From Eukaryota sp. GEM-RC1 (taxonomy: Eukaryota): a stretch of 64,000 bases of DNA. Each line of letters starts with the position of its first letter. Positions within the stretch are counted from its first letter, which is position 1. The notes below the pieces were generated by a model. The model saw only the letters and a list, made by a program, of their open reading frames with translations, was not told where the DNA came from and made no database searches. The stretch lies in NCBI GenBank assembly GCA_040285855.1, contig JAUFOQ010000004.1:1426001-1490000 (forward strand), in the 5' to 3' direction. The position numbers and the translations under genes were made by a program. Positions 5,501 to 62,990 of the stretch are shown here, one piece after another.

Positions 5501-5619
5501 GTTTTGAGTAACTTAGATAAATTGTTTTGAGGTCTAACTCATATACCGCTAACTTTACTTCTGAATTGATGATAGAAAGTTTTCCTTGTCCCGAGATACC
5601 ACTGGGACGTGTTGAACTA

Positions 5620-6071
5620 TACGCAAGATTAGAGTAATAATACGAAACAATGTCCGTAATGTCGCTGCCAATTAAACCTTCAATACGACCAGGATTCGAA
5701 GTAGTAGAAGTACTTCTGCCTAGAGCACCATACCTATCCCTACCCCACGACCACACGTCATTGTTGACGTCAACAGCAGTGGAATGCCACCATCTTGCAG
5801 CTGCAGTGATGACTTTTCCAACAACCTTTAGTTCAACTGGATTAACAGAACTAGAACTAGACCCAGTACCTAGACGACCGCTACTATTTACACCCCATGA
5901 CCATAGTTTAGAGTTCACATCAATTCCATGTGCGTGGGTACCAGTAGTGGTTATAAAAACAAACTCAATATCCTCAGCAAATGGAGTTGGAGTTGAGTAA
6001 GATCCAGAACCACCTAATTTTCTTCCACAAGTAAGAGTAGAACCATCCTCTTTGATGAAAAAGGCAGATGT
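5620..6071 (-). other. Partial RCC1/BLIP-II-like propeller (last ~3 blades) of copy C
   Basis: KLWSWGVNSSGRLG…HSTAVDVNNDVWSWGRDRYGALG RCC1-repeat motifs. Confidence 0.85.
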
Positions 6072-6530: not shown

Positions 6531-7710
6531 CTATGAAAACTGTGTAACTTTAAAAACATTAATAACACTAAGCAAGGCTAGAAATGCAAAAATTAAACGA
6601 TCAATAGAAACAGAATTGGCAGCCATGAACAACATTAAAATTGTTTGAATTATCAAATATAAAGGCAAAGTGAAAAATGACGATGATACCATCAAAATAT
6701 ACACAACTGATGAAACAAAATGATATGTTCTTCGTTGAAGATATAGAACAAAAACAACTGATATACAGTGAATGATTAATAAGATAAAGTAGATTAACGG
6801 TTGAGGTGAAACAAGAAAGTGTTGGTGAAGAGTTCCAAAGATGAAATTAATTGAAACTAGAGCAGAAGTTGTCAAGAATGCACTGTGATAAAATTTAAAT
6901 TGTTTCAATTTCCTGAATATAAAGTACGATGAAATAAAGGAAAACAATTGAAAAGATGACGCGACAATAAAGTAACTATCAATGTCAAATTCAAATGCTG
7001 ATAGAATAAATTCAAAGAATACTAGTACAGAACTGGCAGATTTGGTCAAAATTATAGGAATAGAGATCAGTGTTATGAATAACACGTTGGAAAATCTAGA
7101 CATTGATTTAAGTACTTGAGCTTTTTGAAACTCTGAAGTTGAAAAGAGAAGAATATCGTGATGATTTTGCACTAATTCTAGGAACTTTAACATCGAAAAG
7201 TCAGTTAAATAGATGGCAAATATTAATATAACCAACATTCCCACTTTGAAAAGATAATATTCTTCACCAATACAGAAGATTCTGGTAGATATTGAATCGT
7301 CAGTACAATATTGACATAAATCTCCATAAGAATAAGGAGATTTGCAAGAATTTTTTCACAATTGAACCAAATATCACACTCATCTAGTTCCCAAGTAACA
7401 TTGTTTAACATGAAACCAGGTTCAATTCCAGTCAAATTTCCATATCCACATTCAGCTAAATGAGGACAAGGTAAGCAAGCATCTACAGAATCTAGAGTGT
7501 TTAAAGGACAAACACAATGCTCAAGATCACTAGAGCCTTTTGAAGAGTAACTCTAGGATACGGACAAGATCTGCATTCTGAATTGAAGTCTGAATTTGAA
7601 TAATAATTTAAAGCACATTCCACACAGACACCGAGAGAATTAAATTCCATTCCTTTTGGACATAGACAGCCGTTTCCAGAATTCAATTTAGGTAAGTGAC
7701 AATCATTTGA
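6531..7710 (-). other. Cys-rich (GCC2/GCC3-like) region followed by multi-pass transmembrane C-terminus, copy A
   Basis: CLCPKGMEF…CVECALNYYSN…CRSCPYPRVT…CVCP…CLPCP…C motif, then roughly 7-8 hydrophobic stretches; unbroken in copy B ORF 35808-37196. Confidence 0.7.
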
Positions 7711-22700: not shown

Positions 22701-25689
22701 CTACTAACAGTTAGTGGAGTGTAATCCAAAGCGTTAATCTCAGAAAGTGTTAAAGTTTTTCTGAATATCTGCACTGCACGAATTCGTCCTTTAAAAGAGC
22801 CAGCTATAGGAAAATACAATGAAGGATGGGAACTGTATGATGCAGTAAACTGCAGTTCTTGATTACCATTGAAGTAAATACGAGCTGTTGATGAAGAATA
22901 AGCCATAACCAAGTGGATCCATTGGCGTCGTGGAGGATGAATATCACGATATCGGCTTCCCCAGCCAGTCAAAGTGCCGTCAATGTAAGTTCTACCAGAA
23001 GAACTATGAAGGCCGATTCTTCCATCTTCATAGTATATCCACAAAGAAATAGAGGCGTCTCTCCATCCAGTGGGACCCACAAGGTTTGGAATATGGAGAG
23101 TGTTACCAGATTTGATATCTAGATAACCCCCAACTCCATCTTGTTTCCACTCTCAGGTCCTTCAATTTTGATAGCATCAGAGTCGTGAATACCTGAATGG
23201 TCAATTGTGTTGTAAGAATCATGCCAAGTATAGTGTAAGAAGAGGTTTGAATTTGAATCTGTGTTAGTACCACTGCTTTTAAGTACAACACCAGTGACGT
23301 TTACAAACTCAAGTACACTCAACTCATCGAGTTCAAGGACACCATCTTGGTGATCAAAGTAACCACTGACTATAAGTTTGTGACTGATTAGGAACGTGCG
23401 AAGACTCTCCAAAACAACAGAGTTTGCTGAAGTAAAGGATGAAGAAGAAGAGAGATCTGTGTGGAAAGTACCTGCATTAAGTAGAAGAGTATTCGTGACA
23501 GTGAGAGTTGAGTTGTTTTTAAAGAGGAGAACTGCATTGGAAGATACTGTTAGAGATGATGCGGAGACTGCCACGTCATCAAGAAACACGTGACTAAACA
23601 AATCAACTGAGTTGCCAAATTGAACTGTACCAGTGATCAAAGAATTCTCAGCAGATTCAAGAACAATTAATGAAGATGAGAAATTTCCAGAATTAACTTC
23701 TAAATATGAATCTATTGACAACAATGAATTTCTTAGTACCTGACAATAAGAGCACAAGAGTGAACCAACAATTACTTCAGAATCAAATGACTCAAAAGTT
23801 GCAAAGGATAAATCTAAAAGATGGAAATTGGTGAAGCCAATAGTATTCTGAAAATGACTGTTGATGACAATTAAATTCAGTTTTGATATAGTGATGTCAT
23901 TTGAACCGTCACAGTAGAGCTCACTGGAATTTAAAGTTATAGTTAGATCATCAGATTCAATCTTTGAGTCTTGAGTTAAATTAACCAACGAATTATCACA
24001 GAGCTCAAGGTTTTTTAAATTGTTCAAGGACACGTCATTTAAGTAGAGAGTTGAGTAACTTAGGGAAATTGTGTTGAGGGCAATGTTGTACGATGATAAT
24101 TGTACTTCTGAACTGATAAGAGACAGTTTTCCTTGTCCCGAGACAATACTCGAGTGAGAGCAATAACTATAGGCAAAATTAGACCGATAATATGCACTAA
24201 TACTAGTAACTCCTTTACCTTCCAAATGAGTAATACGACCTGGTATGGTTGCAGGAGAACTTTGAGAAGTAGTTCTACCTAGAGCACCATTAGAATCCCC
24301 ACCCCAAGACCATACGTCGTTATTAACGTCAACAGCAGTAGAGTGTTGCGGTCCTGCAGCTGCAGTAATCACTTTCCCAATGTTTTTTACTTCAACTGGA
24401 GTAGCAGAGTCTGATGTACTACCCCTACCTAGTCTACCATGATCACCCCTACCCCAACTCCATAGCTTCTGGTTAACATCAATTCCAACAGCGTGCCAAA
24501 GAACAGTGTCAATAAAGACAAACTCAATATCCTCAGCAAATGGAGTTGGAGTTGAATAAGTTCCAGTATCACCTAATCTAAAACCACAAGTAAGAGTAGA
24601 ACCATCCTCTTTAATGAAAAAAGCAGCACGTCCAGCAGCAATAAATTTAATATTTTGTAAGGAATTGATTAACATTGGTGAATGTTCGTTAATGGTGTTT
24701 GTCTTACATAAAACATTATCCCTACCCCATCCCCATCCATAAACTTTACCATCTCTAGTTAAAGCAAATGCAGTAAGAAATCGACCAGCAATTTGTTTAA
24801 CATTACTTAAATTTGGAATTAACGTAGGTGTATATATGTTGTTTGTATGCCCTAACCCTAACTGACCATCTCGATTCCACCCCCAAGAATAAACATACCC
24901 AGAAATATTCAAGGCACGATTTGAGCGAGCAGAAGCAACTGCCTGCACAATATTTGAAATTTGAATTTTTGCATGAACTTTCCGATCCCCACCGACATAT
25001 CCTAGAGGTGAATAATTGTTACTTCCAGAAGTGTAAACGTCACCATTTACCAAAAGAACTAGAGAATGATCTATTGCAGCAGAAGCTTGTCTAATAGGGT
25101 AAGGAAGAGTAAATGACTCAGGTGACAATTGATTTCCTGATAGTCCTCCTCCAAGTTGACCATCATTATTCCTTCCCCAAACATGAAGAACATCAGAACT
25201 GATTGAGGATTCACCATCATTGAAAGAAGTGTAAGTAACATTGTCCAAAACAAGCTCACTGAACTCATCTAGATCAATAGAACCACGTTTCCAATCAAAG
25301 AGATCAGTGACAACCAGTTTGTGGGACAGGAAGGACACAAGGTCAGCATCCAAGACAAGAGAGTGTACGGAAGTAGAAGAAGAAGAGATTGCGTTGGTGT
25401 GTAAAGTACCTCCATTAAGGAGGAGAGTACCAGAGATAGTTAAAGTCGAGTGGGCTTTGAAGAAGAGAACAACGCTAGAGGACAAAGTGAGGGACGATAT
25501 GATAACGTGATCATCTATAGTGACAGTGATGGTTGTAGACTGAGTAGAAATAACAACAGAAGAAGAAATCGAAGGAGAACCAGTCTGATCCCAATTGCTT
25601 CCTTCAGACCAAAGTCCAGAACTTGTGGCATCCCATTTGAAGATCGAGCCGAGAACGCAACAACTCAGAAGAAGGAGTCCGATGATCAT
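6531..25689 (-). CDS. Giant (~6,400 aa) modular cell-surface/membrane protein, copy A: signal peptide, RCC1 propeller, LamG-like domain, 4 repeat modules, beta-helix-like stalk, IPT/TIG-like, Cys-rich, multi-TM. Split by indels in this assembly.
   Basis: ATG at 25689 gives MIIGLLLLSCCVLG (signal peptide). A chain of abutting or overlapping minus-strand ORFs from 23119-25722 to 6531-7244 joins at homopolymers; several breaks are in-frame in copy B. Confidence 0.8.
16800..22600 (-). repeat. Four tandem ~1.52-kb coding modules of copy A
   Basis: DDPCCGTFDSPCASF at ~16980, ~18500, ~20020 and ~21540. Confidence 0.9.
22720..23250 (-). other. LamG/concanavalin A-like domain in slot 2 of copy A
   Basis: LFLHYTW…DHSG…ASISLWI…QWIHLVMAYSSSTARIYFNG…FKGRIRAVQIFRKTLTLSEINAL fits the Laminin_G_3 consensus; one frameshift near 23125. 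Confidence 0.8.
24165..25190 (-). other. Complete 7-repeat RCC1/BLIP-II-like propeller, slot 1 of copy A
   Basis: Seven repeats of the H-S-L…G-x-V-Y-x-W-G-x-N-x-x-G-Q-L-G type. Confidence 0.9.
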
Positions 25690-35807: not shown

Positions 35808-38800
35808 CTACGAAAACTGCGTAATTTTAAAAACATTAATAACACTAAGCAAGGCTAAAAATGCAAAAATTAAACGATCAATAGAAACAGAATTGGCAGC
35901 CATGAACAACATTAAAATTGTTTGAATTATCAAATATAAAGGCAAAGTGAAAAATGACGATGATACCATTAGAATGTAAACAATTGATGGAACAAAATGA
36001 TATGTTCTTCGTTGAAGATATAGAACAAAAACAACTGATATACAGTGAATGAATAATAAGATAAAGTTGATTAACGACTGAGGTGAAACAAGAAAGTGTT
36101 GGTGAAGAGTTCCAAAGATGAAATTAATTGAAACTAGAGCAGAAGTAGTCAAGAAAGCACTGTGGTAAAATTTAAATTGTTTCAATTTCCTGAATATAAA
36201 GTATGATGAAATAAAGGAAAACAATTGAAAAGATGACGCGACAATAAAGTAACTATCAATGTCAAATTCAAATGCTGATAGAATAAATTCAAAGAATACT
36301 AGTACCGAACTGGCAGATTTGGTCAAAATTATAGGAATAGAGATCAATGTTATGAATAACACGTTGGAAAATCTGGACATTGATTTGAGCACTTGAGCTC
36401 TTTGAAATTCTGAAGTTGAAAAGAGAAGAATATCGTGATGATTTTGCACTAATTCTAGGAACTTTAACATCGATAAGTCAGTTAAATAGATGGCAAATAT
36501 TAACATAACCAACTTTCCCACTTTGAAAAGATAATATTCTTCACCAATACAGAAGATTCTGGTAGATATTGAATCGTCAGTACAATATTGACATAAATCT
36601 CCATAAGAATAAGGAGATTTGCAAGAATTTTCTTCACAATTGAACCAAATATCACACTCATCTAGTTCCCAAGTAACATTGTTTAACATGAAACCAGGTT
36701 CAATTCCAGTCAAATTTCCATATCCACATTCAGCTAAATGAGGACAAGGTAAACAAGCATCTACAGAATCTAGAGTGTTTAAAGGACAAACACAATGGTC
36801 AAGATCACTAGAGCCTTTTTGAAGAGTAACTCTAGGATAAGGACAGGACCGACATTCTGAATTAAATTCTGAATTTGAATAATAATTTAGAGCACATTCC
36901 ACACATTCACCGAGAGAATTAAATTCCATTCCTTTTGGGCATAAACAGCCGTTTCCAGAATTCAATTTAGGAAAGTGACAATCATTTGAAACTAGATCTA
37001 CAGTCGCAGATCGAGCAAAATAGGAAAATGTAATCGTCATTGATTGGATTGGATCCGTGATTATTTCCAGATTCTCACCAATAACTATGACAGCCTGTTC
37101 ATCAGTTGAACTAGCTACAGTATCATAAACATGTATAAGTTTTGAAGAATTAAGGAAATTGTGTTGAGTAATTAAGAATATGGAAGGCTTGACCAAAGTA
37201 CAAGATTTGTCAAAAACATTTGATTATCACATTCAAGAAGTTCAACAGTTTCTACTGTCAAAATATGAGTAAACTTTTGAATAATTGTGAAATTTGATTG
37301 AACGAATTGGTCTATGAACTGGAGTTCAAGGTAATGATAGTCAAAATTGAAAGTAGAAGCAGATGAAAATACCAAACTATCTGAAAATAGTTCAAAAGAA
37401 GTCCAATTAAAAGTTGAAGTTAGTGTAGTTAAATTACCTTCACATTCAACAACAAATCCAATGGAATCCATACAAAGAACTGGAATTGTCAAGTTCAATG
37501 CATAAGAGTAAGATTCAAGATAGTCCTGAACAAACACCAATTCCAGTGCTTTACCAGGAGTAAAAGTAATAGTAAATGGAGCTTGAGTATGAAAACAATT
37601 AGGTGAAATTAGATGAATCGAATAAGAGAGATGAGAAGCAGTAAGAAGATGAGAAGTCATTGAGATTGAACTTTCAAATTGTTCGACATTAGAATATATT
37701 TCATTTCCCATCTTTAATTGAATAGTTTCTTCAATTTCTTCTCCCAATGATGTAATTCCTTTGTTGATATCAACAGGAGTTAGACAAGTATATGACTGAT
37801 AACCGTAAAACTCCAACTCTAAAAGAAACACGTCATTTTGAGGAATTAAAGTAATTTCATCAACTTTTGGTAGAACATTATCTATTCCACACATCAAAGC
37901 AAAGGAAAAACCACTGGGAATTTGTTTACAAGAATATTTTGGTGAAAGAGTTTGATTGTTTACAATCAGCTCAAAAGGAAGGTTAGCATCAAAATGTTGA
38001 CAACTGGAATTTGTAGTAATGACAACCTTGAAAATATCAAAAGAAGAATTAAAATTAACTGAAATGGCATCACCAGATTTTAAAAATTCGGAACAAAATG
38101 ATACATCTACATTGCAGCAACGAGATCCATCAAAAACCATGTCAGTAGAGATATTTGAAATGTATCGAGTATTTTGAATTTGGGGATGATGAGAATTTGG
38201 TAAGTAACAAATTTCTTCTAAAAAGGCTTCACCATGGACTGAAAAGAGTTAACAAACAACTCGTCAAAGTAAACGTTTACTGGAACAACAACTTGAAAAG
38301 TGGAAATAATTAAATTTCTGCAAAAAATGTAGAATTTGAAACTGTTCCAGGAAAGGTTTTACCTCCAACAACACACATAAACTGAGAGTATAGAAGTCCG
38401 ACGAAATCAACTCCAATGTCGCGATGTTCATAAACACTGACGTGATCTGAACTGGTAAATTCTGTATTGAATATTTTAATATCACCAATAATTTGATTTT
38501 TGAATCCAATATGTTTCCAAGTCCATTGCAAATCACTTTCACCTAATGAGAAACTGAACGAAGAAATGTTAAACGAATAAGTGTATGAAAAACGGAAGGT
38601 TGCATAATCGTCTTCAAATATTTGAATTTGATCAGATGAAACAATTAAATTTTTGAGTTGAAAGTCGGAGAATAATGGACATATCGAAAGTACAGAAATT
38701 TGAACAATCACGTCATCAATGGTTGAAAAGAACAAAGGAGAAGTAATGGAAATGGTAGGTGGAAGCACAACTTCCCGTATTAATTGAAAAGAAAAGGAAC

Positions 38801-41800
38801 TTTCCAAATATTCAACGTTGAATTCAAATGAAGATTCGGCTTGATTTACACTCAAGAAATTTAAAATAAGTGATCCCTGTAGAGATTCTTGGTCTAATAT
38901 TTCACAATTTGAAATACATTCTACAGTAATAGAGTAATTGTACTGATTGAAATTGACTGTAAAAGACTGATGAATAGCAACTTCATAAAAGAAAGGAAAC
39001 TGATCGTCAATCAGATCAGTCATCAAGGCAACTGTCATTGATTGTGGTGATTGATGTAACGTGATAAAAGGATCGTCATCATATAATTCAAGCACATTTG
39101 AGCCCCTTTTAAGGAACATAGTTTGACGGCCGTGCGAAAGATAAATATTTGAAATTTCTTCCAATAATAAGAACTCAATTCGAGAATCGTTTTGAATGAG
39201 CGGAGGTAGAACTAGATAATTGTCGACTTCGAAGGCTAATTTAAGATCAAAAGCAGAAGCAAAAGATCTTCCAAAAGCAATAAAGAATCCAATAGAAATC
39301 ACGTCAACTTCAAACGTGACTAAATCTTCATCAACAATAGATAACTCAGATGTTAATTCTCCAAATATAAAACTACTCTCAATAGCTGAGTACTCGTAGA
39401 AATGAATTCCTTCAACTTCGAGAGAAATTTCATGAACAAAACTAGACTCAAACCACTGAATAAATCGAGGAGAAATTGAATTGGGTAAGACAATATAAGG
39501 TAAATTAAAGATAGGATAACAACCAACTTCACTACATAATTCTAAATCATCAGGATATCCAGGCACTGAAGACATAAACTCAATGTGAGCAAGACCAGGA
39601 GTTGTTTGAAAATTTACAATTTCAATGGAATTTGGAATGTCCAAAGTCACTTGGAAATCGTTCAGAGAAACCTCTCCATAGAGACTATAAACAGTAATCT
39701 CACACGGTTGGTTAACAAAGCAAACCAAGGAAGTATTATAAGCTTCTAATGACGTGATTGGAAGTGATAGAATAATAGAAATACCCGTAGTAAATTCAAT
39801 ATGAGTAATAAATCTATTTAGACCAACTAATTCTCCAGTATAAATGATCATTTCATTAGTTGTTAGGTCTTGTACAACAGCTGAAGAACCAGACATTTGA
39901 ATAGTAGAATTGGAAAAACAGTTAAACATTTGGCCAAAATATGATCCAAAAATTCTCAAAATATTTCCAGAAGGGGAAAGTACCAATGGGAAAACTCCAT
40001 GTCTTGGAGCTATAAGTTGAAGTTGAAATACATTACTGGTTTGATTTCCAATTATTACATAAAGATTGAAAATGTTACTTTCAACTGAACAAACGTAAGG
40101 AATATAATGAACAATTTCTTCATGAGAATGATTTGACACACGTGTTGAAGCAATGTCAGAAACTAAAGATGAATAGTCAAAACTTGTTGAAAGATCTTGG
40201 CCAATGATTGAAAGTTCTCCGTTCATTAGGAATGGATACGGATAAACAAAAGAAATGACAGGTTTTTTAAAACAATAAGTAAAGGAAATTATTGAAGAAT
40301 CTGTCGACCTAGATACGAACATCTCATGACAACCATGACCTTCAAAAAGAAGAAATTCAAATTTTCATGATTACTTGAATAATACGCAAGACTTTCATTT
40401 ACCCAAGCAGTTGAATGATGAATAACAATAGGAACTAACCCAAGATTAAAAGCAAACAGTGGTACAAATCCACCTCTAGTTGGAGGTTCTAGACTAACAA
40501 ACTCAATAGGACAAATAGGAATGAATAAATGTTGGAATGAAAATATTCTGGAAATAGTTAAATTGAAATAAATTGAATTATTCATTGGATTGAAGGAAAT
40601 GCTATCATTTAAAAAGAAATCAAGAGAATTCAATAGAAAGTTGTGGTAGAATTCATCATTATTAGGAACTGAGAGTTCTAGTAACTCTGAAAGATAGTCG
40701 ATATTATTGAAATTAAGATAAACTTGACAGAAAGACGTGTTACAGCAGTGTTGTGAAGGAAAAATTGAAATGTTTGAGAAGATTTGAGAAAGATCTAAGA
40801 ATGGATCGTTCCCAAACAATAAGTCCCGATTAATTGAAGCAAATTTTGAAATAATTGGATATCCAGAAGAGAATGTAATTGATGAATTTTGAGCCGTTAG
40901 GGAGGATAAGAACAAGACTTCTGTTGAATTAGTCAGAATAAGTGAAGAGTTGGTGATTTCAAAGTCAGATTTAAAGACTGTTTGGTATGTGCAACCCGAA
41001 AATTTAAAATTATTCAACATTACTGAAGAATTCGAAACTCTAAAGTAAGGTTCTATTTCTCCAAAAGAAGAAAGTGACTTGCATTGTTGAATAGAAACTT
41101 TGTCAAAATCAACAAAAGATTTTGAAATATTGAATAAAGAGGTCGATTCAAAGAAATTTACTGAGAGTTGGGAAATAGAAAGAGAAGAATCAAATACTTG
41201 AAACAGTGTTAATGACTCAATGTCTTGAATAGTCCAAAGGTGAAGTGAACAAGAAGAATTATAGAGGGTTACAAAAGAGTCAATCAGAGTGAAATTTTCA
41301 AATGCTACAGTATTTGATGTAAAAATAGTATCACTAAAATTGAGTGCAGAATATAAAACCATATTAGAAAAAGTGGCATCGTTCAGAATCAGATTGGAAT
41401 TAAAAGAATATAGCAAATGATGAGATACGATATTATTGATTACAAGACTAGAAGCAGTGACATTGGATGAAATAAAATGAATTAAACTTAAATCCTCAGA
41501 ATTATTTTCATCATCAAAGAATAGACCAGTAGTTTTAGCTGATCTATGTATTCGAAAATTTTGAATCAACACGTCACTGTTGGAGGAATACACGATTCTA
41601 TTTGAAATTTCAAAAAGTCGGCATCAAATAGACTAAAACTGGTTGTAATTAAGTCAAAAGAACATCTGACAAGACTGAAACAATTTCGACATGTATCAAG
41701 GAGATTTCGCAATCAAATGACGTGATGACGGGAACATTGATGACGTCAGCATATAAGTTTGTAATCAAAAATTGAGAACTAGAAGTGTTGAACATGTAAG

Positions 41801-44800
41801 GATTTGCTGAATTCAAGAATGTAGAGATAAGAATTTCTAAAGAATTCAATTCAATTTGACTGTTCGTAGCTTGAATTAGGGCACTTAATTGACAATGAGC
41901 AAAGCTTAAAGAAGTTGAATTCATTAAAGAATTTCTCAACACTGAAAATTCATGACTAACACTGGAAGTTTCTAGCGTAAACATAGACATCACAATAACA
42001 GACTCTTTGGAAATGAGAACTGAATTGGTGATTGTTTTTGATATCATAACTCCTTGACAGTAGAGCTCAGAGGTATCTAATTTGAGGACATTCGTGACAT
42101 CAGCATTTACAGTAGTGACGTTTTCAAATCGGAATGAAGATGATACGAGATGAATAAAACTTTCACTTGAATTGATGGATGTATGTTCTGAATTAGAAAT
42201 TGAACCGGTAGAATCATTGAAGATGAGGAAGTTGGCACTCGTGATTTGGTCTAAAACTAAGTAATTAAGGGAAAAAGTTGATGAAGTCACTGATATTGTT
42301 GACGTATCAGACTTGGAATGAAACTTAGACACACTAACATTTGAAAAGGTGGAATTTGAAAAATTAATCAACATTAGACTATAAGCATTAAAGCTAAGAA
42401 TAAGCAAGTCGTTAAATGTAATAAATGATTCATAAGAGAATAATAATGGAGATGTCAGTTGATCAACATTAAACTGTGTGGCCTTAAGAGTTGAACCTAG
42501 AACTTTAATTAAAGAAATATTGGTATTAAAAGGACCGGAAATATCAATAGAATGAGCATTGACAGTACCATGTGAAATACTAAACAAAGAGTCTGATAAG
42601 TCATTTGTTGAGCCAAAATCAACTGAAAAGAGATCAACACGTGATTCAGATATTTGGAAAACTTCAAATATTGTTGAATAATACAAATGTAAGTGTTCTA
42701 CTCGCATTCCAGTCTCCACTGCTTTAATAAATGTATCCAAAGTCGTGGAGTTGTGAACTATCAAAGTATTGACTTCAATATCTGACATTACCGCTATCAA
42801 AAATGATTGTGTGTTAGCATTGAATATCTCAGTGTTGATAAGATTGAGAGTTGAATAATTGAACTGGAAAGTAACGTCAGTAAAGGCATTGGAGACTAGT
42901 GAGTAATCAATTGAACACGAACTTGAATCAGATAAATTAAGAATTGAGAAAGAATAAATGTCAGTAAAAGAACAGTAAATAAAGGTTAATTCAGTAGTTT
43001 TTGCATCAATAAGAGACAAAGCTCTAATTGTACGAAACCGGACATTGTCAAAGCCAGCAGAAGAATTAATAATTGAAATCATATCCAAATTAACACTACA
43101 TACATTGGAAAAAATAGAAGAACTAATGATTAAAGTAGAATGAGTTGCAGAACCAATTGATCGAGAGCTAACATTGTTAAAAGAAGTATTTGAAAGGTAA
43201 ACTTCACTAGAAATGAATTCAAAGAGAGTACAATTAAGTAACTCAAAAGCAAGAAGGTCGCTAACAAAGTTGGAATTGCTTAGATGAATTAATGAAAAAT
43301 CGTTAGGAGTAGAAATGTTAAAAAATACCAAATTTTTGAAAACTAGATCGGATCGGTGTCCAATCAAAAATGATTCAATCAAAGTGAGATTAGTATTCAA
43401 AGTAACGTCATGCAGAATTAATGTAGAATCATTTAGATCGAAAAAGATTCCAACTTCGCATCTCCGACTTCAACCAAATTGATTGTGACCACTGAATCGT
43501 CGGCATTGATAAGTGATTGAGAAGACTCCACGTCAATAATAGAACTATTTGACAAAGAAGCTGAAGAAGAAGTAAGAGAGAGGAAGTGTTTTAAATTGAG
43601 AATGTTGAAATGCGAAAGAGTTAGTGAAAATGTTGAATCATTGAAATTGAAGAAAGAACTTCCATAAATCATAGAAAACGTTGACCCTTCAACAGTTACA
43701 TTAGAAAGATTATCTACAGAGACCAGTACTTGAACCTCAATAGAATGGAAAGAACTATTTGATATTCCTAATTCAGAATTAGAACTAAATATGACAGATG
43801 ACGTGTTGGAATTTGTCAAAAAGAGCGGAAATTACTGCTGATGAATCCTTAAAAGAGAATATTGAACACTCAACTGCAGATAATAAGATATCAACAACTG
43901 TGAATTGTGAGCGATTAAACATAAACAGAGGATCAGAAGCATCACGTATATAAGAAGCATTGATTGAACTCATTACAATAATGCTAAATTCTGAGTAGAG
44001 AAATGACTTATTAATTCTCATAGAATCAATATCCAAGTGATTAATAATAACATTACTGTCAAAGATTTCAAAAGCTAAAGAAGTATTAACCTTAGTCAAG
44101 GATGTAGTATTAAAACTCATAGATCCATGGTCTAAATGAATAAGTGAAGTAAAAGAAGAGTTTTCAATAAGTAAGTTGTTCATAGATCCATTACAATGTA
44201 GACATGTTAAGAGCACGTTAGCATTCGTTTGAGTTAGTATAATTGAAGATAGATCTAAATGAGAGTCAACAATGTTGAAGAGATTGTTGGAAATTGCAGC
44301 TAACTTTGTGTTGATTGAATAGCTTCCACTTGAGTCATTTGAACAAGTTGACCCTTCATTAATTTGATGAAAATCCAAAAAGTCAAGAGTTGAATTTGTA
44401 GATTTAGTAAGCAAAAACCAGTAGTTAAAATTGAATCATAAACCTTAGCCAAATTAAGTTCTAATGTTGAATCAGAAAGATCAAAAACACTGTTTGTAAT
44501 CAATTTTGATAAATTGAGGTCAATGAGACGAAGAACTGATGTAGATCCATCAAAACTGACGTACTATTCATACCAACAGAACACAAGGAATCAATAAACA
44601 AGTGACTATTTGTTGGCTCGAAAAGTACATTGAAGCTGGAAAATACTACTGAAATATTAAATAATGAGACATTGGAATTAACAATAAGAAAACCAAATTC
44701 TGCTTGGTTATAAGAGATGATGGTATTTTCAATGAAACAACTGTCGACTTTGTTTAAAGCAACTAACGATCCAGAAGATTCAGAAGTATTTAATTTGTTC

Positions 44801-47800
44801 AAAAACAGCGAACCCTCTATTAAATTGAAGAATCCCAAAGTACTTTCTAAATTTGTAGAAGAAATAGAAACAGAATCGATAATAATAGAACAATCCGTTG
44901 ATAGAAGAAAAGTATTGGAGATTGACAAGTGGTGCAACACAAAATGATTCATAACAATGATTGAATTGGAGATGTGATACACACGTGATGCTGACGTGTT
45001 CGACATCATGAAGTCGGAAAATGACAGATCACATTCATTCAAAGTAAACATATTAGTAACAGAAGAATTACTAACGAAGAACCTTTGGAAAGCACCAACA
45101 GATTGTTTTGAATTAAAAAATTCCACAATACTTGACCGAATCAATGAAATATCATTGAGCTCTAAAATTGTCGGTTGAGCCAGAATGACAGTTTCTAAGT
45201 AACTGTCATAAATATTCAAAAATTGATATCCAAAAGATTGACCTCCATTAACTCAATAAGACTTCCAGTCGTATCAAAAATGTCCATATCAGTAATAAAA
45301 ACAGTACCTCTGAGAATATCAAAACACGTGTCACAAGTAACAGTAGAAATGGTTAATTCATTTAGTTCAACTGGACCGTTTGATGACTCAATCAGTGACT
45401 TACAATTAATATCTTGAAAAACAAAGGTTTGGAGGTCAATCTTTGAGTTGGAAACGAAGATGATTGCACTTGAAGAATCAATACTGAACAGGTTAAAGTC
45501 AATTAAAACGATTTCAGCATCGTTAGCAGATAGTAACTGATCAATTTTAATTGATGATGAAACTGTAAAACGATCCATAATAAATACACTAGAGTTGATT
45601 GAAAAGATAATTGAAGTGGTAACAGACTCAAAAGAAAGACCATTTTCAATGATCTGACTTTCGACAAGATCAAAAACAACATACGAAAAGTTAGAATTTG
45701 AACAAAATGAATAAGACAAAGTAATGTTAGACTTTGTTAATTGAAATAATGATGATGAGTTAATATTTAAAAAAGTGCTGTAAGAAATATCCAATGGTGT
45801 GTTGTCAAGGACAAAAGGGGAATCCGTAAAAGATCCAGAAACACTAACATTTTGTAAAATTAATTGGGAATTACTAGACCTTAATAAACTGGAGGAATTC
45901 GACTCGAAACTACAGTTTGATAGAAAAACTGTAGATGTATCAGTCAGTATTGTAGTAGAACCAGCTTCATGAAAGATATTTGAATTAATTAATTGGATAA
46001 TGGAATCATCAAAAGTAAAACAACTAGGAGAATGACAAACAATATCAATGTTGGAAAGAGAAAACTTGGAATGTAGTACTTCCGAAAAAGTCTGGTAGAT
46101 TCCATCAATCACAACGTCCCCTAGACCAATCAATTGCCAATCAACGTCATTTACATCACCCAATCCATTTTTAAAGGTGTAAATTCCACTATGAAAATAT
46201 ACTGTCCCTTTTGTTCCCATTCTGTCTACAACTCTATTGAAAGAAGCACAAGGACTATCAAAAGTACCACAACAAGGATCATCAACGCCAGTAGTAGAAA
46301 TGTAAGAAACTTGATTTAAGTCGAGTACATTATCATTGATAGAGACAACTAGAGAAGTTTCTGAATAGATAGCAGTAATGAGTGAATTACAAGGACTAAT
46401 AACATCATGAAACTTACCATTAATTAGACCAGATTCTATAATAGTGTAGTTATTCCCAGTTGAATCATACATTGTTTCAAATTCTATTTCTAATATTCCA
46501 TCTAAATAAGCAGTTGAACCAATAATTAATTGAGTAAAAGAATCACCACTATTGATTTGAATAGAGACGATAGAAGAAGGTAAAAGAGCAAGAATATCAT
46601 CAAAAGCAATTAAAGGTAAAGGAATGAGTTTTCCAGCGTTCGAGGTGTTGTTGAAAACTGTTCCTAACCCTCTTAAAATTTGAAATTCTGACAATTCCAA
46701 ATTTTGCTCTAAAATGACGTTTGCATCTGACAATATGATACCAGCAACCGAATTGAATGTAGTTGTAGATAATGTAACGAAATTTTTCATCAAAACATCA
46801 GAATGACAAGTGATAGAACCACTAGAAGACTGGAATTCTGAAACTGACACGTCATCAAGAATCACGTGACTGAAGAAATCAAAAGAATTCGCCAATTGAA
46901 TCCGACCAGTGATTGATGAATTATCTACTGATTCTTGAACAATAAAAGAAGATGAAAAATTTCCTGAATTAATCTCAGAATATGTTTCAACTGACAATGG
47001 CGAAGTTCCAAGTATTTGGCAATGAAAACAAGAGAAATAAGCAACAATAGTGTGAGTACTTGAAACTGACTCAAAAGTTGAAAATGATAAATCTAAAATA
47101 TGGATGGAAGCAAAATCAAAATCATTCTGAAAATGACTGTTGACAGCGATCAAAATAACATTTGATGAAGAGATATCGACTGAATCATCAAAGTAGAGCT
47201 CACTGAAATGTAAGGTTACATGGATGCTATCAGAATTAATTTTTGAGTCTTCACTTAAGCTCATAATCGATTCACTGTCAAGCTCGAGTTGCTCTAAATT
47301 TTCAAAAGTAAAGTTATTTAATTGTAAGTTTGAAGAAATCAAAGAAACAGAACTGATGAACATTTTTGCTGATAGAAACATAAAGTTTGAATCAATTAAT
47401 GAAAGGTGTCCCCAATGATCTTGAGGGGTATCAAAACTTAATTGATTAATCTCATCAATGGATAGGGTAGTGGTGGAAAAACGGCGTCATGAACAACACT
47501 TGAATTGATTAATTGCAAGGTTGAGTCAGGTAGTGAAAAACAGAAGAGCGAATAGCAGAAAATATCAACGTTTGAAAGAGAAAGATTGGTGCTTATTATT
47601 TCAAGTAAAGTCTCGTCAAATGCTTCCAATCACCACGTCACCGAGACCAATCACTTCCCAATCAACGTCATGTACCTTCCTCAATCCATTGTTAAAGGTG
47701 TAATTTCCACTATGAAAATAGACCTGCCCTTTTATGCCCATTCTGTCTAAAACTCCTTTAAAAGAAGCACAAGGACTATCAAAAGTTCCACAACAAGGAT

Positions 47801-50800
47801 CATCAACGCCAGTAGTAGAAACGTAGGAAATTTGATTCAAGTCGACTACATTATCATTGACAGAGACAATTAGAGAAGTTTCTGAATAGATAGTAGTAAT
47901 AAGTGAATTACATGGACTAATAACATCATGAAACTTACCATTAATTAGACCAGATTCTATAATAGTGTAGTTATTCCCAGTTGAATCATACTTTGTCTCA
48001 AATTCTAGTTCTAATATTCCATCTAAATAAGCAGTTGAACCAATAATTATTTGAGTAAAAGAATCACCACTATTGATTTGAATAGAGACGATTGAAGAAG
48101 GTAAAAGAGCAAGGTTGTCATCAAAATCAATTAAAGGTAAAGGAATGAGTTTTCCAGCGTTTGAGGTATTGTTGAAAACTGTTCCTAATCCTCTTAAAAT
48201 TTGAAATTCTGACAATTCCAAATTTTGCTCTAAAATGACGTTTGCATCTGACAATACGATACCATCATCAGAAGTGAATGAAGTAGCAGATAACGTTACG
48301 AAATTTCTCATCAAAACATCAGAATGACAAGTGATAGAACCACTAGAAGACTGGAATTCTGACACTGACACGTCATCAAGAATCACATGACTGAAGAAAT
48401 CAAAAGAATTCGCCAATTGAATTCGACCAGTCATTGATGAATTAAATACTGATTCTTGAACAATGAAAGAAGACGAGATATTTCCCGAGTTAATCTCAGA
48501 ATATGTTTCTACCGACAATGGGGAACTTCCAAGTATTTGGCAATGAAAACAAGAGAAATAAGCAACAATAGTCTGAGTACTTGAAGCTGACTGAAAAGTT
48601 GAAAAGGATAAATCTAAAATATGAATATTAGCAAAATCAAAATCATTCTGAAAATGACTGTTGATAGCAATCACAATAACATCTGATGACGAGATATCTA
48701 CCGAATCATCATAATAGAGCTCACTTGAACTTAAGGTTATATGGAGGCTATCAGAAGTAATTTTTGAGTCTTGACTTAAGCTCATAATTGATTCTCTGTC
48801 AAGCTCGAGTTGCTCTAGATTTTCAAAAGTAAAGTTATTTAATTGTAAATTTGAAGAAATCAACGAAACTGAACTGATGAACATTTTGCCGATAGAAACA
48901 TAATGTTTGAATCAACAAATGAAAGGTGTCCCCAATGATCTTGAGGATTATCAAAACTTAATTGATTAATCTCATCAATGGATAGAGTAGTGGTGGAAAA
49001 AACGGCGTCATGAACAACACTTGAATTAATTAATTGAAAGTTTGAGTCAGGTAGAGAAAAACAACAGGATGAATAGCAAAAAATGTTAACATTTGAAAGA
49101 GAAAGATTAGAGTGAACGATTTCAAATAGAGTCTCATCAATGCCTTCAATAACGACGTCACCGACACCAATCAATTGCCAATCAACGTCAGTTACATTCC
49201 CCAATCCTTGATTAAAGGTGTAACTTCCTTCGTGGAAAATTACCTTCCCTTTCCTTCCCATTCTGTCTAAAACTCCTCTAAAAGAAGCACATGGACTATC
49301 GAAAGTTCCACAACAAGGATCATCAACACCAGTGGTAGAAATGTAAGAAATGGTGTTTAAATGAGCAATATAGTCATCGAAAGACCCAATTACTGAAGTA
49401 GAAGTATACTCAACATTAAAAATAGAAGAACACGTGCTTTTGACTGAAGTAAATTGACCCAAACGATGGCAAGAATCAATAAGGACGTATTGTTTACCAC
49501 CCCAATGTTTGAAAGGATCAAATTCTACTTCTATTGTACCATCTAGAAAAGCAGTTGAACCTACAGTTACTTGAGTTGAAGAATTATCACTATTGATTTG
49601 AATAGAGACAGTAGAAGAAGGAAAAAGTGAAAGATTATCATCAAAATTAATTAAAGGTAATGGAATTATTTGCCCAGCGTTTGAGGTGTTGTCAAAAATT
49701 ACTCCTAATCCTCTTAAAATTTGAAAATCTAGCAATTCAAAATTTTGCTCTAAAATGACGTTTGCATCTGAGAGAATGATATCAGCATCAGAATCGAATG
49801 AAGTTGTAGACATTGTAACGAAATTTCTCATCAAAACATCAGAATGACAAGTGATAGAACCACTAGAAGACTGGAATTCTGAAACTGACACGTCATCAAG
49901 AATCATGTGACTGAAGAAATCAAAAGAATTCGCCAATTGAATTCGACCAGTGATTGATGAATTATCTACTGATTCTTGAACAATTAAAGCAGATGAGAAG
50001 TTTCCTGAATTAATCTCAGAATATTTTTCTACTGACAATGTCGAACTTCCAAGTATTTGGCAACTAAAACAATAGAAATGAGCAACAATAGTGTTAGTAC
50101 TTGAAGCTGACTGAAAAGTTGAAAAGGATAAATCCAAAATATGAATATGATCAAATGCAAAATCACTCTGAAAATGACTGTTGATAGCAATCACAATAAC
50201 ATTTGATGACGAGATATCTACCGAATCATCATAATAGAGCTCACTTGAACTTAAGGTTATATGGAGGCTATCAGAAGTAATTTTTGAGTCTTGACTTAAG
50301 CTCATAATCGATTCACTGTCAAGATCGACTTGCTCTAAAATTTCAAAAGTAAAGTTGTTTAATTGTAAATTTGAAGAAATCAAAGAAACTGAACTGATGA
50401 ACATTTTTGCTGATAGAAACATAATGTTTGAATCAATAAATGAAAGGTGTCCCCAATGATCTTGAGGAGTATCAAAACTGAATTGATTAATCTCATCAAT
50501 GGATAGAGTAGTGGCGGAAAAAACGGCGTCATGAACAACACTTGAATTAATTAATTGAAAGGATGAGTCAGGTAGAGAAAAACAATAGGCGGAATAGCAA
50601 AAAATGTCAATATTTGAAAGAGAAAGATTGGAGTGAACGATTTCAAATAGAGTCTCATCAATTCCTTCAATAATGACGTCACCGAGACCAATCAATTGCC
50701 AATCAACGTCAGTTACATTCCCCAATCCTTGATTAAAAGTGTAACTTCCTTCGTGGAAAATAACCTCCCCTTTCCTTCCCATTCTTTCAAAAACTCCTCT

Positions 50801-53800
50801 AAAAGAAGCACAAGGACTGTCGAAAGTTCCACAACAAGGATCATCAACACCAATGGTAGAAATGTAGGAAGTTTGATTTAAGTCGACAACAAAATCATTT
50901 ACAGAGACAATTAGAGACGTTCTTGAATAAAACGTAGTCATAAGTGAAGCACATGGATTAATACTACTGAATCTTCCATTAATTTGACCAGCTTCTATAA
51001 GAGTGTAATTGTTTCCTGTTGAATCATACTTTGTGTCAAGTTTCAGTTCTAATATTCCATCTAAATAAGCAGTTGAACCAACAATTATATGAGTAGAGGA
51101 AAAATAACTGTTGATTTGAAGAGATATGATGGAACCAGTAGAAAGAGAAAGGTTGTCTTCAAAAGTGAAGTTCGAGGAAGGTTTAATTTTGCCACAATTT
51201 GAAGTATTAGTAATAATAGTACCAAATCCTGTAATAATTTGATAATCAAGGATTACAAAAGAGGATCAAAAAGAAAAAATTGAATCGTATAGAGTCAAAG
51301 TATCATGGTAAATAAAAGAAACTTCGGAAATAGCAACATCATTTTTGATCAAAACATCAGAATGACACGTAATAGATCCATAAGATGACTGGAATTCTGA
51401 TACTGACACGTCATCAAGAATCACGTGACTAAAGAAATCAAAAGAATTCGCCAATTGAATTCGACCAGTGATTGATGACTTATCTACTGACTCTTGAACA
51501 GTTAATGAAGATGAGAAATTTCCAGAATTAATCTCAGCATATTTTTGTACCGACAATGGGGAACTTCCTAGTATTTGGCAATGAGAACAGAAGAAATAAG
51601 CAACAAAAGTCTGAGTACTTGCAGCAGACTCAAAAGTTGAAAATGATAAATCCAAAATATGAATATTATCAAAGACAAAATCATTCAGAAAACTACTGTT
51701 GATAGCGATCAAACTGAGTGTTGATGATAAAATCTCAATCGAATCATCAAAATCTAGCTTACTTGAATTTAAAGTTATAGTAAGATTATCAGAAACAATT
51801 TTTGAATCTTGAGTTAAATTAACCAACGAATTACCACAGAGCTCAAGATTTTTTAAATTGTAGAAAGATATCTCACTTAACTTGAGAGTTGAGAATTTTA
51901 AGGAAATTTTTCTGATGTCAAACTGGTATGATGATAACTTTACATTGGAATTAACAAGAGAAAGTATTCCTTGTCCCGAGATACCACTAGAGTGTGAACT
52001 ATAAGCAAAATTGCACTCCTGCCGTGCACTGATACTAGTAACTCCTTTGCCCTCCAAATGAGTAATACGACCTGGTGCCCACCTTTCATCATTCGAATAT
52101 GTACTTCTACCTAGAGCACCATTCCAATGATCACCCCAAGACCACACGTCATTGTTGACGTCAACAGCAGTGGAATGTCGCAACCCTGCAGCTGCCGTAA
52201 TCACTTTCCCAATGTTTTTTACTTCAACTGGAGTAGTAGAAGAGGATGTCGTACCCCTACCTAGTCTACCATTGCGACCATCACCCCAACTCCACAGCTT
52301 CTGGTTAACATCAATTCCAAGAGCGTGATACTCATGGGTGTCAATAAAGGTAAACTCAATATCCTCAGCAAATGGAATTGGAGTTGCGTAAGTTACGGAC
52401 TCAGCCAGTTTTCTACCACAAGTAAGAGTAGAACCATCATCTTTGATGAAAAAAGCAGCACGGCCAGCAGCAATAAATTTAATATTTTCCAATGGTTCGA
52501 TTGGGAATGGTGAATGAACGCTATCAGTACTACATAAAATGTTGCGATTACCACTTCCCCATCCAAAAACTTTACCGTCTCTAGTTAAAGCAAAGGCTGT
52601 GTGTAATCGACCAGCAATTTGCTTAACATTATTTAAATTAGGGATTAAAGTAGGAGTGGCTCTGTTCTCTGTATGTCCTAACCCTAATTCACCATGAAGG
52701 TTATATCCCCAAGAGTAAACATAACCAGAAGAATCCAGTGCGTAACTTGACACAGAAGAAGCAACAACCTGAATAATATCGGATACTTCAATTTTCTCAT
52801 GAACATTCCGATTATCCCCATCGTATCCTAGTTCTCCGTACGTATTAGTTCCAGCAGTGTAAGCGTCACCATTTATTAAGACAACTAGAGAATGAAAGTT
52901 TCCAACAGAAGTTTGTCTAATAGGATAAGGGAGATTGAATGACTCAGGTAACAATTGATGTCCTGATAGTCCTCCTCCTAGATGACCATTGATATTCCTT
53001 CCCCAAACATGAAGAACATCAGAATTTAATGAAGATTCACCATCACTGAACAGGGTTAAAGTAACAGTGTCCAATACCAGTTCACTGAACCCATCTAGAT
53101 CAATTGATCCGCGTTTCCAATTAAAGAGACCCGTGACTATGAGTTTGTGAGAAACGAGAGAGACAACGTCAGTCTCCAAAACTAGAGAGTTTACTGATGT
53201 AAAGGAAGATGAAGAAGACAGATCAGTGTGAAAAGTACCTCCATTAAGAAGAAGAGTATCAGTTACAGTGAGAGTTGAGTTCTTTTTGAAAAGAAGAGCC
53301 GCATTGGAAAATATAGCTAGAGATGATGCAGAGAATGCCACGTCATCAAGAATCACGTGACTGAAGAAATCAATTATGTTGTCAAATTGAACTTCCCCTG
53401 TGATCAAAGAATTCTCAGCAGATTCCAGAACAATTAATGGAGTTGAGAAATTGCCAGAATTAACTTCTAAATGTGAATCGATTGTCAACAATGAATTTCC
53501 TAGTACCTGACAATGAGAGCACAAGAGAGAACCAACAATTACTTCAGAATCAAATGACGCAACAGTTGAAAAGGATAAATCTAAAAGGTGAAAATTGGTG
53601 ACGAGAAAATCATTCAGAAAATGACTGTTGATAACAATTAAACTCAGTTTTGATATGGAAATGTCATTCGAATCGTCACAGTAGAGCTCACTTGAGTTTA
53701 AAGTGATAGTTAGATCATGAGATTCAATTTTTGAGTCTTGAGTTAAATTAACCAACGAATTATCACAGATTTCAAGATATTTTACATTGTTCAAGGATAT

Positions 53801-55453
53801 GTCATTTAAGTAGAGAGTTGAATAACTTAAAGAAACTGTTTTGAGCTCAAACTTTTTGATGATAAAACGACTTCTGAATTGATGAGAGAAAGTTGCCCAT
53901 ATCCCAAGATACCACTGGATTGTGAACTATAAGCAAAATTAGAGGGCCAAGATGCACTAATATCTGTTACTCCTTTGCCATCCAAATGAGTAATACGACC
54001 TGGAAAGAATGATGGAGAACTTTGAGATGCAGTCCTACCTAGAGAACCATCCCAGTTCCGACCCCAAGACCACACATCATTGATGAAGTCAACAGCAGTG
54101 GAATGTACATAACCTGCAGTTGCTGTAATCACTTTCCCAATGTTTTTTACTTTAACTGGAGTAGTAGAGGCAGTGGAAGTACCCCTACCTAGTCTACCAT
54201 TGCCACCATCACCCCAACTCCATAGCTTCTGGTTGACATCAATTCCAAGAGCGTGATGAGTAATGGTGTCAATAAAGGTAAACTCAATATCCTCAGCAAA
54301 TTGAGTTGGAGTTGAGTAAGTTCCTGATTCACCTAATTTTAAACCACAAGTAACAGTAGAACCATCCTCTTTCATGAAAAAAGCAGCACGTCCAGCAGCA
54401 ATAAATTTAATATCCTGTAGCGATTCCATTAACAACGGTGAAGGTTGATTGACAGTACTTGACCTACACAAGGTGTTATCATGACCCCAACCCCATCCAT
54501 AAACTTTACCATCTCTAGTTAAAGCAAAGGTTGTTTGATATCGACCAGCAATTTGTTTAACATTACTTAAATTTAGAATTAAAGTGGGAGTATCTATGAA
54601 GTTTGTATGTCCCAATCCTAACTCACCATTATAGTTACCTCCCCAAGAGTATACAAAACCAGAAGAACTCAAGGCGTAACTTGACCAAGAAGAAGCAAGA
54701 ACGTGAATAACAGTGGAAATTTGAACCTTTTCATGAACATTCCGATTATCACCATCATATCCTAGTTGGCCACGATTGTTTCGTCCAGAAGTGTAAAGGT
54801 AACCATTTGATAACAGAACTAATGAATGGGTTTGTCCACCAGAAGCTTGTTTAATAGGATAAGGGAGACTGAATGACTCTGGGAATTCTTGATTTCCTGA
54901 AAGTCCTCCTCCAAGTTGACCACGATTATTTCTTCCCCAAACATGAAGGACACCAGAACTGACAGGGGATTCCTCATCACTAAAAAGAAGTTGACGTGAC
55001 ACCATCCAGAACAAGTTCACTTAACCCACTTAGATCCATTGAACCACGTTTCCAATCAAAGCCGCTGGTAACAATGAGTTTGTGGGAGAATAGAGAGACA
55101 AGATCAGCGTCTAAAACAAGAGAGTTTACTGATGTAAAGGAAGAAGAAGAAGAGATATCAGATCGTAACGTACCTCCATTAAGGAGAAGAGTATCAGTGA
55201 TAGTGAGAGTAGAGTGATCTATGAAGAGGATCACGACATTGGAGGACAAAGTGAGGGATGATATGGTGATGTGAACATCAACAGTGACGGTAAGTGTTGT
55301 AGATCGGGCGGGGAGGACAACAGAAGAAGATATTGAAGGAGTAAGGGCGGGATTCCAATTGTTTCCTTCAGACCAAAGTCCAGAACTTGCGGCATCCCAT
55401 TTAAAGACCGCACCGAGAACGCAACAACACAGTAAAAGGAGTCCGATGATCAT
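35808..55453 (-). CDS. Giant (~6,550 aa) modular cell-surface/membrane protein, copy B: signal peptide, two RCC1 propellers, 4 repeat modules, stalk, IPT/TIG-like, Cys-rich, multi-TM. Split by indels.
   Basis: ATG at 55453 gives MIIGLLLLCCCVLG. Chain of minus-strand ORFs from 54980-55486 to 35808-37196; IPT-like PVISFVYPYPFLMNGELSIIGQDL and LSPSGNILRIFGSYFG. Confidence 0.8.
46100..51900 (-). repeat. Four tandem ~1.52-kb coding modules of copy B
   Basis: DDPCCGTFDSPCASF at ~46260, ~47780, ~49300 and ~50820. Confidence 0.9.
52000..53020 (-). other. 7-repeat RCC1-like propeller, slot 2 of copy B
   Basis: LHVWGRNINGHLGGG … VWSWGDHWNGALG … CNFAY. Confidence 0.9.
53930..54950 (-). other. 7-repeat RCC1-like propeller, slot 1 of copy B
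   Basis: LHVWGRNNRGQLGGG … VWSWGRNWDGSLG … SNFAY. Confidence 0.9.
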
Positions 55454-62217: not shown

Positions 62218-62241
62218 TGACAACACCTTTGCCCAAAAGAC
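62211..62241 (+). repeat. 31-bp perfect direct repeat, copy 1 (GGGGCATTGACAACACCTTTGCCCAAAAGAC)
   Basis: Identical to 62960-62990. Confidence 0.97.
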
Positions 62242-62943: not shown

Positions 62944-62959
62944 TTGATTACAAACTGTT

Positions 62960-62990
62960 GGGGCATTGACAACACCTTTGCCCAAAAGAC
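62960..62990 (+). repeat. 31-bp perfect direct repeat, copy 2
   Basis: Identical to 62211-62241. Confidence 0.97.

Follow-up and report, generated by a model that had tools for sequence, protein, structure and literature searches.

Why do a few codons per blade of a beta-propeller differ in nearly every copy when the framework around them is conserved? The question is raised by a 64,000-nucleotide stretch of DNA from Eukaryota sp. GEM-RC1 (contig JAUFOQ010000004.1, positions 1,426,001 to 1,490,000; the whole stretch is hereafter the window), in which three tandem minus-strand genes carry three whole RCC1 propellers and one half. A sequence-only reading had taken the blocks for the diversified tip of a giant surface protein. 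In this study, we compared the copies with their paralogues, placed the variable codons on a structure model and examined selection at these codons. We consider it probable that the locus belongs to a germline repertoire of predicted surface binders, in which one face of the RCC1 propeller is remodelled by ordinary mutation and episodic positive selection, together with cassette shuffling, most likely for prey-cell surfaces.

Variable codons on one face of the RCC1 propellers

The propellers in the window are as follows.

53926..54948, minus strand: propeller A, 341 codons (RCC1, expectation value (E) 1e-48)
51998..53014, minus strand: propeller B, 339 codons, the copy used for the structure model
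24166..25188, minus strand: propeller C, 341 codons, in gene 2
5616-6068, minus strand: copy D, 151 codons, second half of a propeller only, in gene 3

Propellers A, B and C scored 146-170 bits and copy D 53 bits against PF00415 (RCC1), for which the cut-off is 21.7. The codon alignment of the four copies contained no internal stops, and the hypervariable blocks were present where the sequence-only reading had put them. The quoted blocks were correct except in copy D, where one block aligns as TGT and not as GTH, being off by one. The comparison of four copies held for the second half of the propeller; since copy D is half a propeller, the GNYN and GQT blocks of the first half are present in A, B and C alone. 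In propeller A, the variable codons are at residues 6/8/9, 39/40, 56/58/59, 87/88, 104/106/107, 137/138 and 154/156/157, and further on at 230/231, 247/249/250, 280/281, 297-300 and 334/335.

A class of 34 sites was defined by motif as the two residues before the conserved His/Ser and positions +1, +3 and +4 after WG. Of 147 codon pairs in this class, 84% encoded different residues; the proportion was 25% for 1190 pairs at other sites and 18% for 135 pairs in the turns of the opposite face. The reported richness of the blocks in R, W, Y, H, N and D was borne out, as these made up 75 of 117 residues at the 34 sites and 185 of 950 elsewhere. Outside the window, 23 GEM proteins from searches and 2 from a cluster look-up gave a total of 28 propeller domains, which is a lower bound on family size. 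These paralogues were compared as proteins only, and several of their gene models have gaps resembling false introns. P0092 (the same as copy D), P0001 and P0002 (for which the window copies were used) and P0306 (without a propeller) were left out of the counts, and the second propeller of P0307, near-identical to that of P0007, was omitted from the LamG and PHI-like, tree and generic-blade analyses. Across the 28 domains, the variable sites had a mean entropy of 2.78 bits, compared to 0.90 for the opposite face and 1.38 for other loops (Mann-Whitney p 2e-11 and 2e-13). The face fingerprints of all 28 propellers were distinct.

An AlphaFold2 model of propeller B, built on an 83-row alignment, had a predicted local distance difference test (pLDDT) score of 97.3 and a predicted template modelling score (pTM) of 0.93. 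Foldseek matched it to HERC2 RLD2 and UVR8 with template modelling (TM) scores of 0.91 and 0.89, which identifies a seven-bladed propeller fold. The strand order of the model places the variable sites in the A-B loop and the first part of the C-D loop. In an antiparallel blade these two are on one face, and the conserved B-C turn is on the other. Residues 280/281 of the query align to the WR of GWRHT in UVR8, and residue 247 is aligned with the Trp that follows WG in UVR8 (W94 by offset count); the available text of PMC4501546 describes both the WR pair and this Trp as dimer-interface residues. The one-face location proposed earlier is backed by this topology and alignment, on which, and not on measured distances, the assignment is based. 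Binding of BLIP-II proceeds via apical turns and inter-blade loops, according to the part of 10.1101/2024.08.26.609822 consulted. These results demonstrate a paralogue family whose propellers vary on one face and conserve the opposite one.

Selection, drift or hypermutation at the variable face

Codon models were fitted to the DNA of the four window copies (A, B, C and half D). Under a single-hit model, the ratio of nonsynonymous to synonymous rates (dN/dS) of the 34-site class was 2.76 (p 4e-6), and the likelihood ratio test (LRT) of M8 against M8a gave 36.9. Twelve of the 22 high-posterior sites in M8 belong to the 34-site class, and five lie in the long last-blade loop (residues 309-315), which has indels. 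Rates of multi-base changes were also derived from 4771 codon pairs of the stalk (double 0.017-0.03, triple 0.001-0.004). With the rates fixed at these values, dN/dS of the class was 2.4-2.7 (p <=6e-5), and at 0.07/0.016 it was 1.68 (p 0.013). Divergence as high as that observed arose in 2 of 1000 neutral simulations. Since the 34-site class was drawn after the four-copy alignment had been inspected, the test was repeated with other site sets. A strict 30-site motif rule gave 3.3-4.3 (p <=7e-7), and 24 sites of the class whose variability extends to the 22 non-window domains gave 1.9-2.4 (p 0.006 and 0.0003). In comparison, 30 equally variable sites off the face gave 0.8-0.95 and the opposite face 0.15-0.19. 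Thus, dN/dS above 1 at the face has statistical support that depends on the model.

The face was then compared with its neutral expectation in 23 close protein pairs, which are not independent of one another. It was above expectation in 9 pairs (p<0.05), below in 5 and indistinguishable in 9. Because the pairs are split in this way, diversification looks episodic, being strongest in the clade of the window copies.

Several results weigh against the reading of a positively selected, shuffled repertoire. The DNA is limited to 3.5 copies, and the class was, as stated, drawn post hoc. When multi-base rates were left free, dN/dS of the class fell to 1.24 (p 0.35) and the LRT of M8 against M8a to 4.1. 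When all 54 sites chosen for their entropy among the 22 non-window domains were pooled, dN/dS was 1.1-1.3, which was not significant. The fit of a model with neutral but hypermutable codons equalled or exceeded that of selection with a background synonymous rate. The face is conserved in the pairs P0008/P0153, P0008/P0009, P0009/P0153, P0010/P0014 and P0123a/b. No mosaic signal was found among A, B and C alone (p 0.15), and every gene in the window is broken in the assembly. The diversifying selection proposed by the sequence-only reading is supported, if in a model-dependent way: dN/dS at the sites is above 1, at 2.4-4.3, with multi-base rates set to zero or taken from the stalk, but this is weakened or lost with free rates, and the selection is episodic.

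The same five positions per blade also vary in 1369 blades of 282 non-GEM proteins, which counts further against a special explanation. At a framework divergence of 0.1-0.3, variability was 0.75-0.82 in non-GEM blades and 0.86 in GEM. In three of ten close non-GEM pairs, face positions changed 4-5 times as often as the framework (9/115 vs 11/622, 6/75 vs 6/405 and 22/70 vs 31/378); the other seven had 0-2 face changes. The P0131 cluster (P0434-P0446), comprising Paceibacterota prepilin-type proteins with more than 20 RCC1 blades whose face positions differ from blade to blade, contains one pair with 9/115 vs 11/622. These data suit a relaxed constraint, in which the blocks would be free 'x' positions of the RCC1 repeat that drift neutrally with the rest of the fold fixed, as do the effect of free multi-base rates and the neutrality of the pooled 54 sites. 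However, a neutral simulation at the gene's own rate reached 0.70 against the observed 0.84 (P 0.002), and equally variable off-face sites are neutral, unlike those on the face. Multi-base rates in the stalk are 3-6 times below those required to erase the signal, and some paralogue pairs conserve the face, which is not expected of drift. Composition differs as well: R/W/Y/H/N/D make up 41% of the five positions in non-GEM blades, 64% in the window and 55% in the GEM family, with Arg at 16.7% vs 4.6% and Trp at 9.8% vs 1.7% in window copies and generic blades. We regard relaxed constraint alone as unlikely. As the same positions vary in non-GEM blades and close pairs, we take face variability to belong to the scaffold itself and to exceed the neutral rate in the present family; the sequence-only reading had missed this generality, which makes the pattern less surprising.

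A dedicated diversifying process, by local hypermutation or by short-tract conversion from genomic donors such as truncated copies, would also concentrate changes in the blocks. It is consistent with the 62 of 102 codon pairs among A, B and C at the variable sites that differ by 2-3 bases, with a recombining family that has the truncated copy D within its array, and with a synonymous rate of about 3 when that of the class was set free (LRT 8.35, 4.59 and 2.86 with rising multi-base rates); a hypermutable neutral model was not rejected. In contrast, conserved codons beside or inside the blocks changed synonymously at the background rate (27/114 vs 195/854). Neutral third positions differed in 28 of 89 cases (0.315), where selection predicts 0.30 and threefold hypermutation 0.41 (P 0.066). 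By likelihood, selection and locally hypermutable codons could not be told apart, and a raised synonymous rate was favoured; the direct counts lean the opposite way.

Diversity-generating retroelements vary codons that are scattered over an otherwise rigid scaffold and are rich in Y, N, D, H and R, and their mutagenesis is adenine-specific. The GEM propellers share the scaffold and the scattered codons of this composition. They are unlike such systems in that third positions vary and the window propellers have no adenine-specific pattern. Within the window itself, neither a template repeat nor, among 25 open reading frames (ORFs) scanned, a reverse transcriptase was seen. Block mismatches involve all four bases, in 12 of 12 ordered pairs, and another occurrence in the window was seen for just 1 of the 41 block 12-mers; mutagenesis of the retroelement type and local donors were ruled out on these two grounds. 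Donor-cassette antigenic variation (vls, pilS, VSG) is defined by silent donors and by variation among the cells of a clone. The targeted short-tract replacement suggested earlier found no support in these adjacent-codon, base-bias and local-donor data, and we give a dedicated process little credence. Its fullest form, a diversification system in which faces are rewritten codon by codon, through hypermutation or truncated-donor conversion, and shuffled with lectin-like cassettes onto giant stalks, seems to us marginally less credible again. If true, it would amount to an antibody-like binder library, with anticipatory recognition in a free-living single-celled eukaryote.

Gene architecture, cassettes and neighbouring elements

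The genes were read as chains of ORFs in shifting frames, all on the minus strand of the 64-kb window, and the full-length genes are about 19 kb long.

35808..55453, minus strand: gene 1, ATG at 55453, about 6,500 codons, read across single-base breaks
36792..36917, minus strand: Ephrin_rec_like (GCC2/3-type) Cys-rich repeat of gene 1, ahead of the anchor (Pfam PF07699, E 5e-7, above the cut-off)
35838..36512, minus strand: predicted multi-pass membrane anchor of gene 1, from hydropathy, almost without a tail
6531..25689, minus strand: gene 2, ATG at 25689, about 6,400 codons, with propeller C
22733..23256 (ends approximate), minus strand: LamG/concanavalin-like cassette of gene 2 (Pfam PF13385, E 4e-8), with one frameshift inside
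1..6068, minus strand: gene 3, a 5'-truncated paralogue that starts mid-propeller and extends past the window edge

Gene 1 encodes, in order, a signal peptide, a spacer, propeller A, a spacer, propeller B, a long beta-rich stalk, the Cys-rich repeat and the multi-pass anchor. Its N-terminal part with A and B is identical to the annotated protein P0001 of Eukaryota sp. GEM-RC1. Both gene 1 and gene 2 have a hydrophobic signal-like segment at the start and a multi-pass hydrophobic region with almost no tail at the end; in the anchor of gene 1, six hydrophobic segments exceed 1.5 in hydropathy and four exceed 1.9. The proposal of a giant surface protein in a protist is thus backed by the predicted architecture and by the source name. 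The N-terminal spacer resembled beta-strand-repeat and autotransporter passenger models with TM scores of 0.56-0.72, all below the bar for naming it. Gene 3 starts at about 6070, some 460 bp beyond the stop of gene 2, through either genuine truncation or misassembly, and the annotation joins it to the end of gene 2 (P0092).

In the coding part of genes 1 and 2, all frame-changing gaps between the two are of 1-2 bases, mostly in or beside base runs, and the breaks common to both are located in T runs before G. None falls within a propeller. The GEM-RC assembly was made from nanopore R9.4 reads with short-read correction, as stated in the portion of PMC11316075 available to us. The breaks are read as sequencing errors because of these small gaps at base runs, this assembly type and the similar breakage of an exportin-like gene nearby; they would then be nanopore errors. 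Translation with genetic codes 4 and 6 left the ORFs unconnected, and reading the break at 41651 as a short intron yields a stop, while two missing bases in T runs explain it. The abundance of single-base indels, also in the exportin-like gene, could suggest that the variable blocks are themselves an assembly or base-calling artefact. However, the errors are indels of 1-2 bases mostly at base runs and the blocks are in-frame substitutions, found at the same structural sites in 28 domains of proteins on at least six contigs. Such an artefact is barely conceivable.

In gene 2, the LamG-like cassette occupies the slot that propeller B has in gene 1. Across the family, RCC1, LamG and unnamed cassettes occur in differing orders between repeated spacers, and the architectures seen were RCC-RCC, RCC-LamG, RCC-LamG with two or three LamG copies, LamG-RCC-LamG-LamG and other-RCC-RCC, which demonstrates cassettes in different orders. 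The 22 LamG cassettes aligned were variable, with many gaps in the alignment. A third cassette of about 140 residues (P0124 153-294, P0306 152-250 and P0307 152-294) had no Pfam match and sits in the same slot as RCC1 or LamG; by eye it is presumably like a carbohydrate-binding beta-sandwich. Residues 1-180 of P0003 contain RING and IBR domains ahead of the propeller, probably from a gene-model fusion.

Exchange among paralogues was examined with several tests. Trees of the two propeller halves, from 21 of 28 domains with gapped domains left out, reject each other in approximately unbiased (AU) tests (p 0.002 and 0.0002), a PHI-like test gave p 0.003, and a runs test on three stalks gave p 0.012. 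Gene-model errors and rate clustering could inflate the signals at the protein level, and recombination among paralogues has statistical support that is model-dependent. The stalks of genes 1 and 2 are 93.5% identical over 16.4 kb, and the synonymous difference between the genes, at codons for the same residue, is about 0.06 close to the anchor and increases to 0.18-0.20 towards the tip. In the distal stalk (47600-51990 vs 18340-22706), about 7% of codons fit a dN/dS near 2.8, or 1.9 with multi-base changes.

Such recombination raises another explanation, namely that the faces are old and that gene conversion has reset the framework, so that dN/dS is inflated and selection only protects variants, in a balancing and not a directional manner. 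The recombination signals, the gradient of stalk identity and the star-like tree of A, B and C agree with it. Old faces should, however, be flanked by older synonymous sites, yet these are at background; A, B and C show no tract signal among them, and selection on the face is still required. We rate this explanation as low as the dedicated process.

The remainder of the window contains other genes and mobile elements. A Fanzor1-like TnpB nuclease gene (63136-64000, minus strand, extending past the window edge) matched the Spizellomyces Fanzor and Parasitella Fanzor 1 structures (E 2.6e-9 and 4.4e-8), with weak Cas12f1-like_TNB matches; it has one frame change near 63520-63580, and its last ORF ends with a CxxCxxxxHxxxxC knuckle-like motif and a basic tail. 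Two MULE-transposase-like remnants lie between genes 1 and 2 on the plus strand (27523-29501 and 32424-34087; 93.7% identical over 1.6 kb). An exact 31-nt direct repeat (62211-62241 / 62960-62990) flanks a 16-nt perfect inverted pair (62298-62313 / 62897-62912), and this structure (62211-62990), perhaps a small insertion element, overlaps the 5' end of an intact GH47 mannosidase ORF (60674-62248). About 740 bp upstream of gene 1 (56124-56861), absent upstream of gene 2, contain nested direct and inverted repeats and are likely non-autonomous elements. The exportin/importin-beta-like gene (57246-60146, plus strand; weak IBN_N and Exportin-5 matches) has two breaks at base runs.

Known recognition systems and a possible role of the proposed repertoire

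The closest comparison is with the WD40 repeats of the Podospora HNWD/NWD family (het-d, het-e). As described in the part of PMC1805685 consulted, these have few positively selected codons per blade, paired around conserved residues, on the single interaction face of a beta-propeller in a recombining multigene family. The features matched by GEM are a few codons per blade with dN/dS above 1 on one face, weak or lost with free rates, and exchange among members. HNWD proteins differ in being intracellular NACHT proteins with WD40 blades, near-identical blades being exchanged as units (PMC1805685); in GEM, the framework is specific to each blade position, exchange involves whole propellers or parts of them, and the domain is found in a giant protein predicted to be extracellular. 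No NACHT domain was matched by Pfam in the window proteins, which have a signal peptide and a multi-pass anchor instead, and HNWD or NOD-like receptor (NLR) proteins proper are accordingly not what is encoded here.

UVR8, HERC2 RLD2, BLIP-II and the CRINKLY4 ectodomain share the fold with the GEM propellers (TM 0.89-0.92), the CRINKLY4 propeller having a poorly conserved putative groove and BLIP-II being secreted; unlike GEM, they come from single genes or small families whose partners are fixed. Propellers of the RCC1/BLIP-II type that are highly repetitive occur mostly in bacteria, as far as the available part of PMC9218822 states. Metagenomic multi-RCC1 proteins, of which the named ones are bacterial, vary at the same five positions and are rich in Y, S, N and D there; their best single-domain score was 179 bits, at 25-38% identity to GEM. 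The spacer, stalk and LamG modules were matched by 0 of 426 non-GEM proteins. A metagenome scan yielded 30 loci, with best segments 22-45% identical and no close relative. In a profile search of 1.84 billion representatives, only GEM proteins matched across spacer and propeller among the best 150, a list crowded by multi-repeat proteins, and a viral fold search returned RCC1-like proteins at 13-29% identity and nothing specific.

Among metamonads, the BspA family of trichomonads consists of leucine-rich-repeat proteins. Like the predicted surface proteins of GEM, trichomonad BspA and Pmp form expanded families with repeat domains; these are linked to adhesion and, unlike GEM, whose host is free-living, belong to host-associated species (PMC6701047, in the part available). 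Neither Chlam_PMP, PATR or related Pfam repeats nor adhesion G protein-coupled receptor (GPCR) features (GAIN/GPS, 7tm_2) were matched by Pfam in the window proteins, which end in the six hydrophobic segments with almost no tail. In the literature searched, we found no description of this GEM family, nor of any RCC1 paralogue repertoire under positive selection, and the main text of the genome paper (PMC11316075), as far as available, contains neither 'RCC1' nor 'surface'.

How might such a repertoire work? In the reading we prefer, a germline repertoire of predicted surface binders, the propellers are likely plug-in binding tips on giant proteins with a predicted membrane anchor, and the long stalk would keep the tip at a distance from the membrane. 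On one face, some 30 codons have likely diverged because episodic positive selection acted on ordinary mutations. Duplication and unequal exchange may keep the stalks alike and swap the tips; fresh copies would alter the binding face fast, and some lineages may later hold it fixed. The source, Eukaryota sp. GEM-RC1, is Skoliomonas sp. GEM-RC, a bacterivorous anaerobic metamonad of soda lakes, according to the available text of PMC11316075 and PMC11603281. Prey capture is favoured because of this bacterivorous lifestyle, the lectin-like sister cassettes and the lack of a signalling tail, and prey surfaces are the leading, if tentative, candidate for the putative ligand. A decoy or defence against a virus or parasite seems distinctly less likely, adhesion to self or kin somewhat less likely still, and any other ligand improbable.

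To our knowledge, how free-living phagotrophs recognise prey, viruses and kin is largely open. The family described here provides a concrete candidate system, in which a shared stalk is combined with at least 28 different propeller faces and with 22 LamG cassettes, and each propeller is about 340 residues long with a confident model. Recognition repertoires shaped by selection are known from fungal WD40 receptors, and the family adds the RCC1 fold and a free-living anaerobic metamonad to them. The five tolerant positions per blade, mapped on a natural scaffold, are useful for binder design. The variability of these positions in bacterial RCC1 repeats suggests widespread use of the fold as a binder scaffold; the present case is then less singular and its theme broader.

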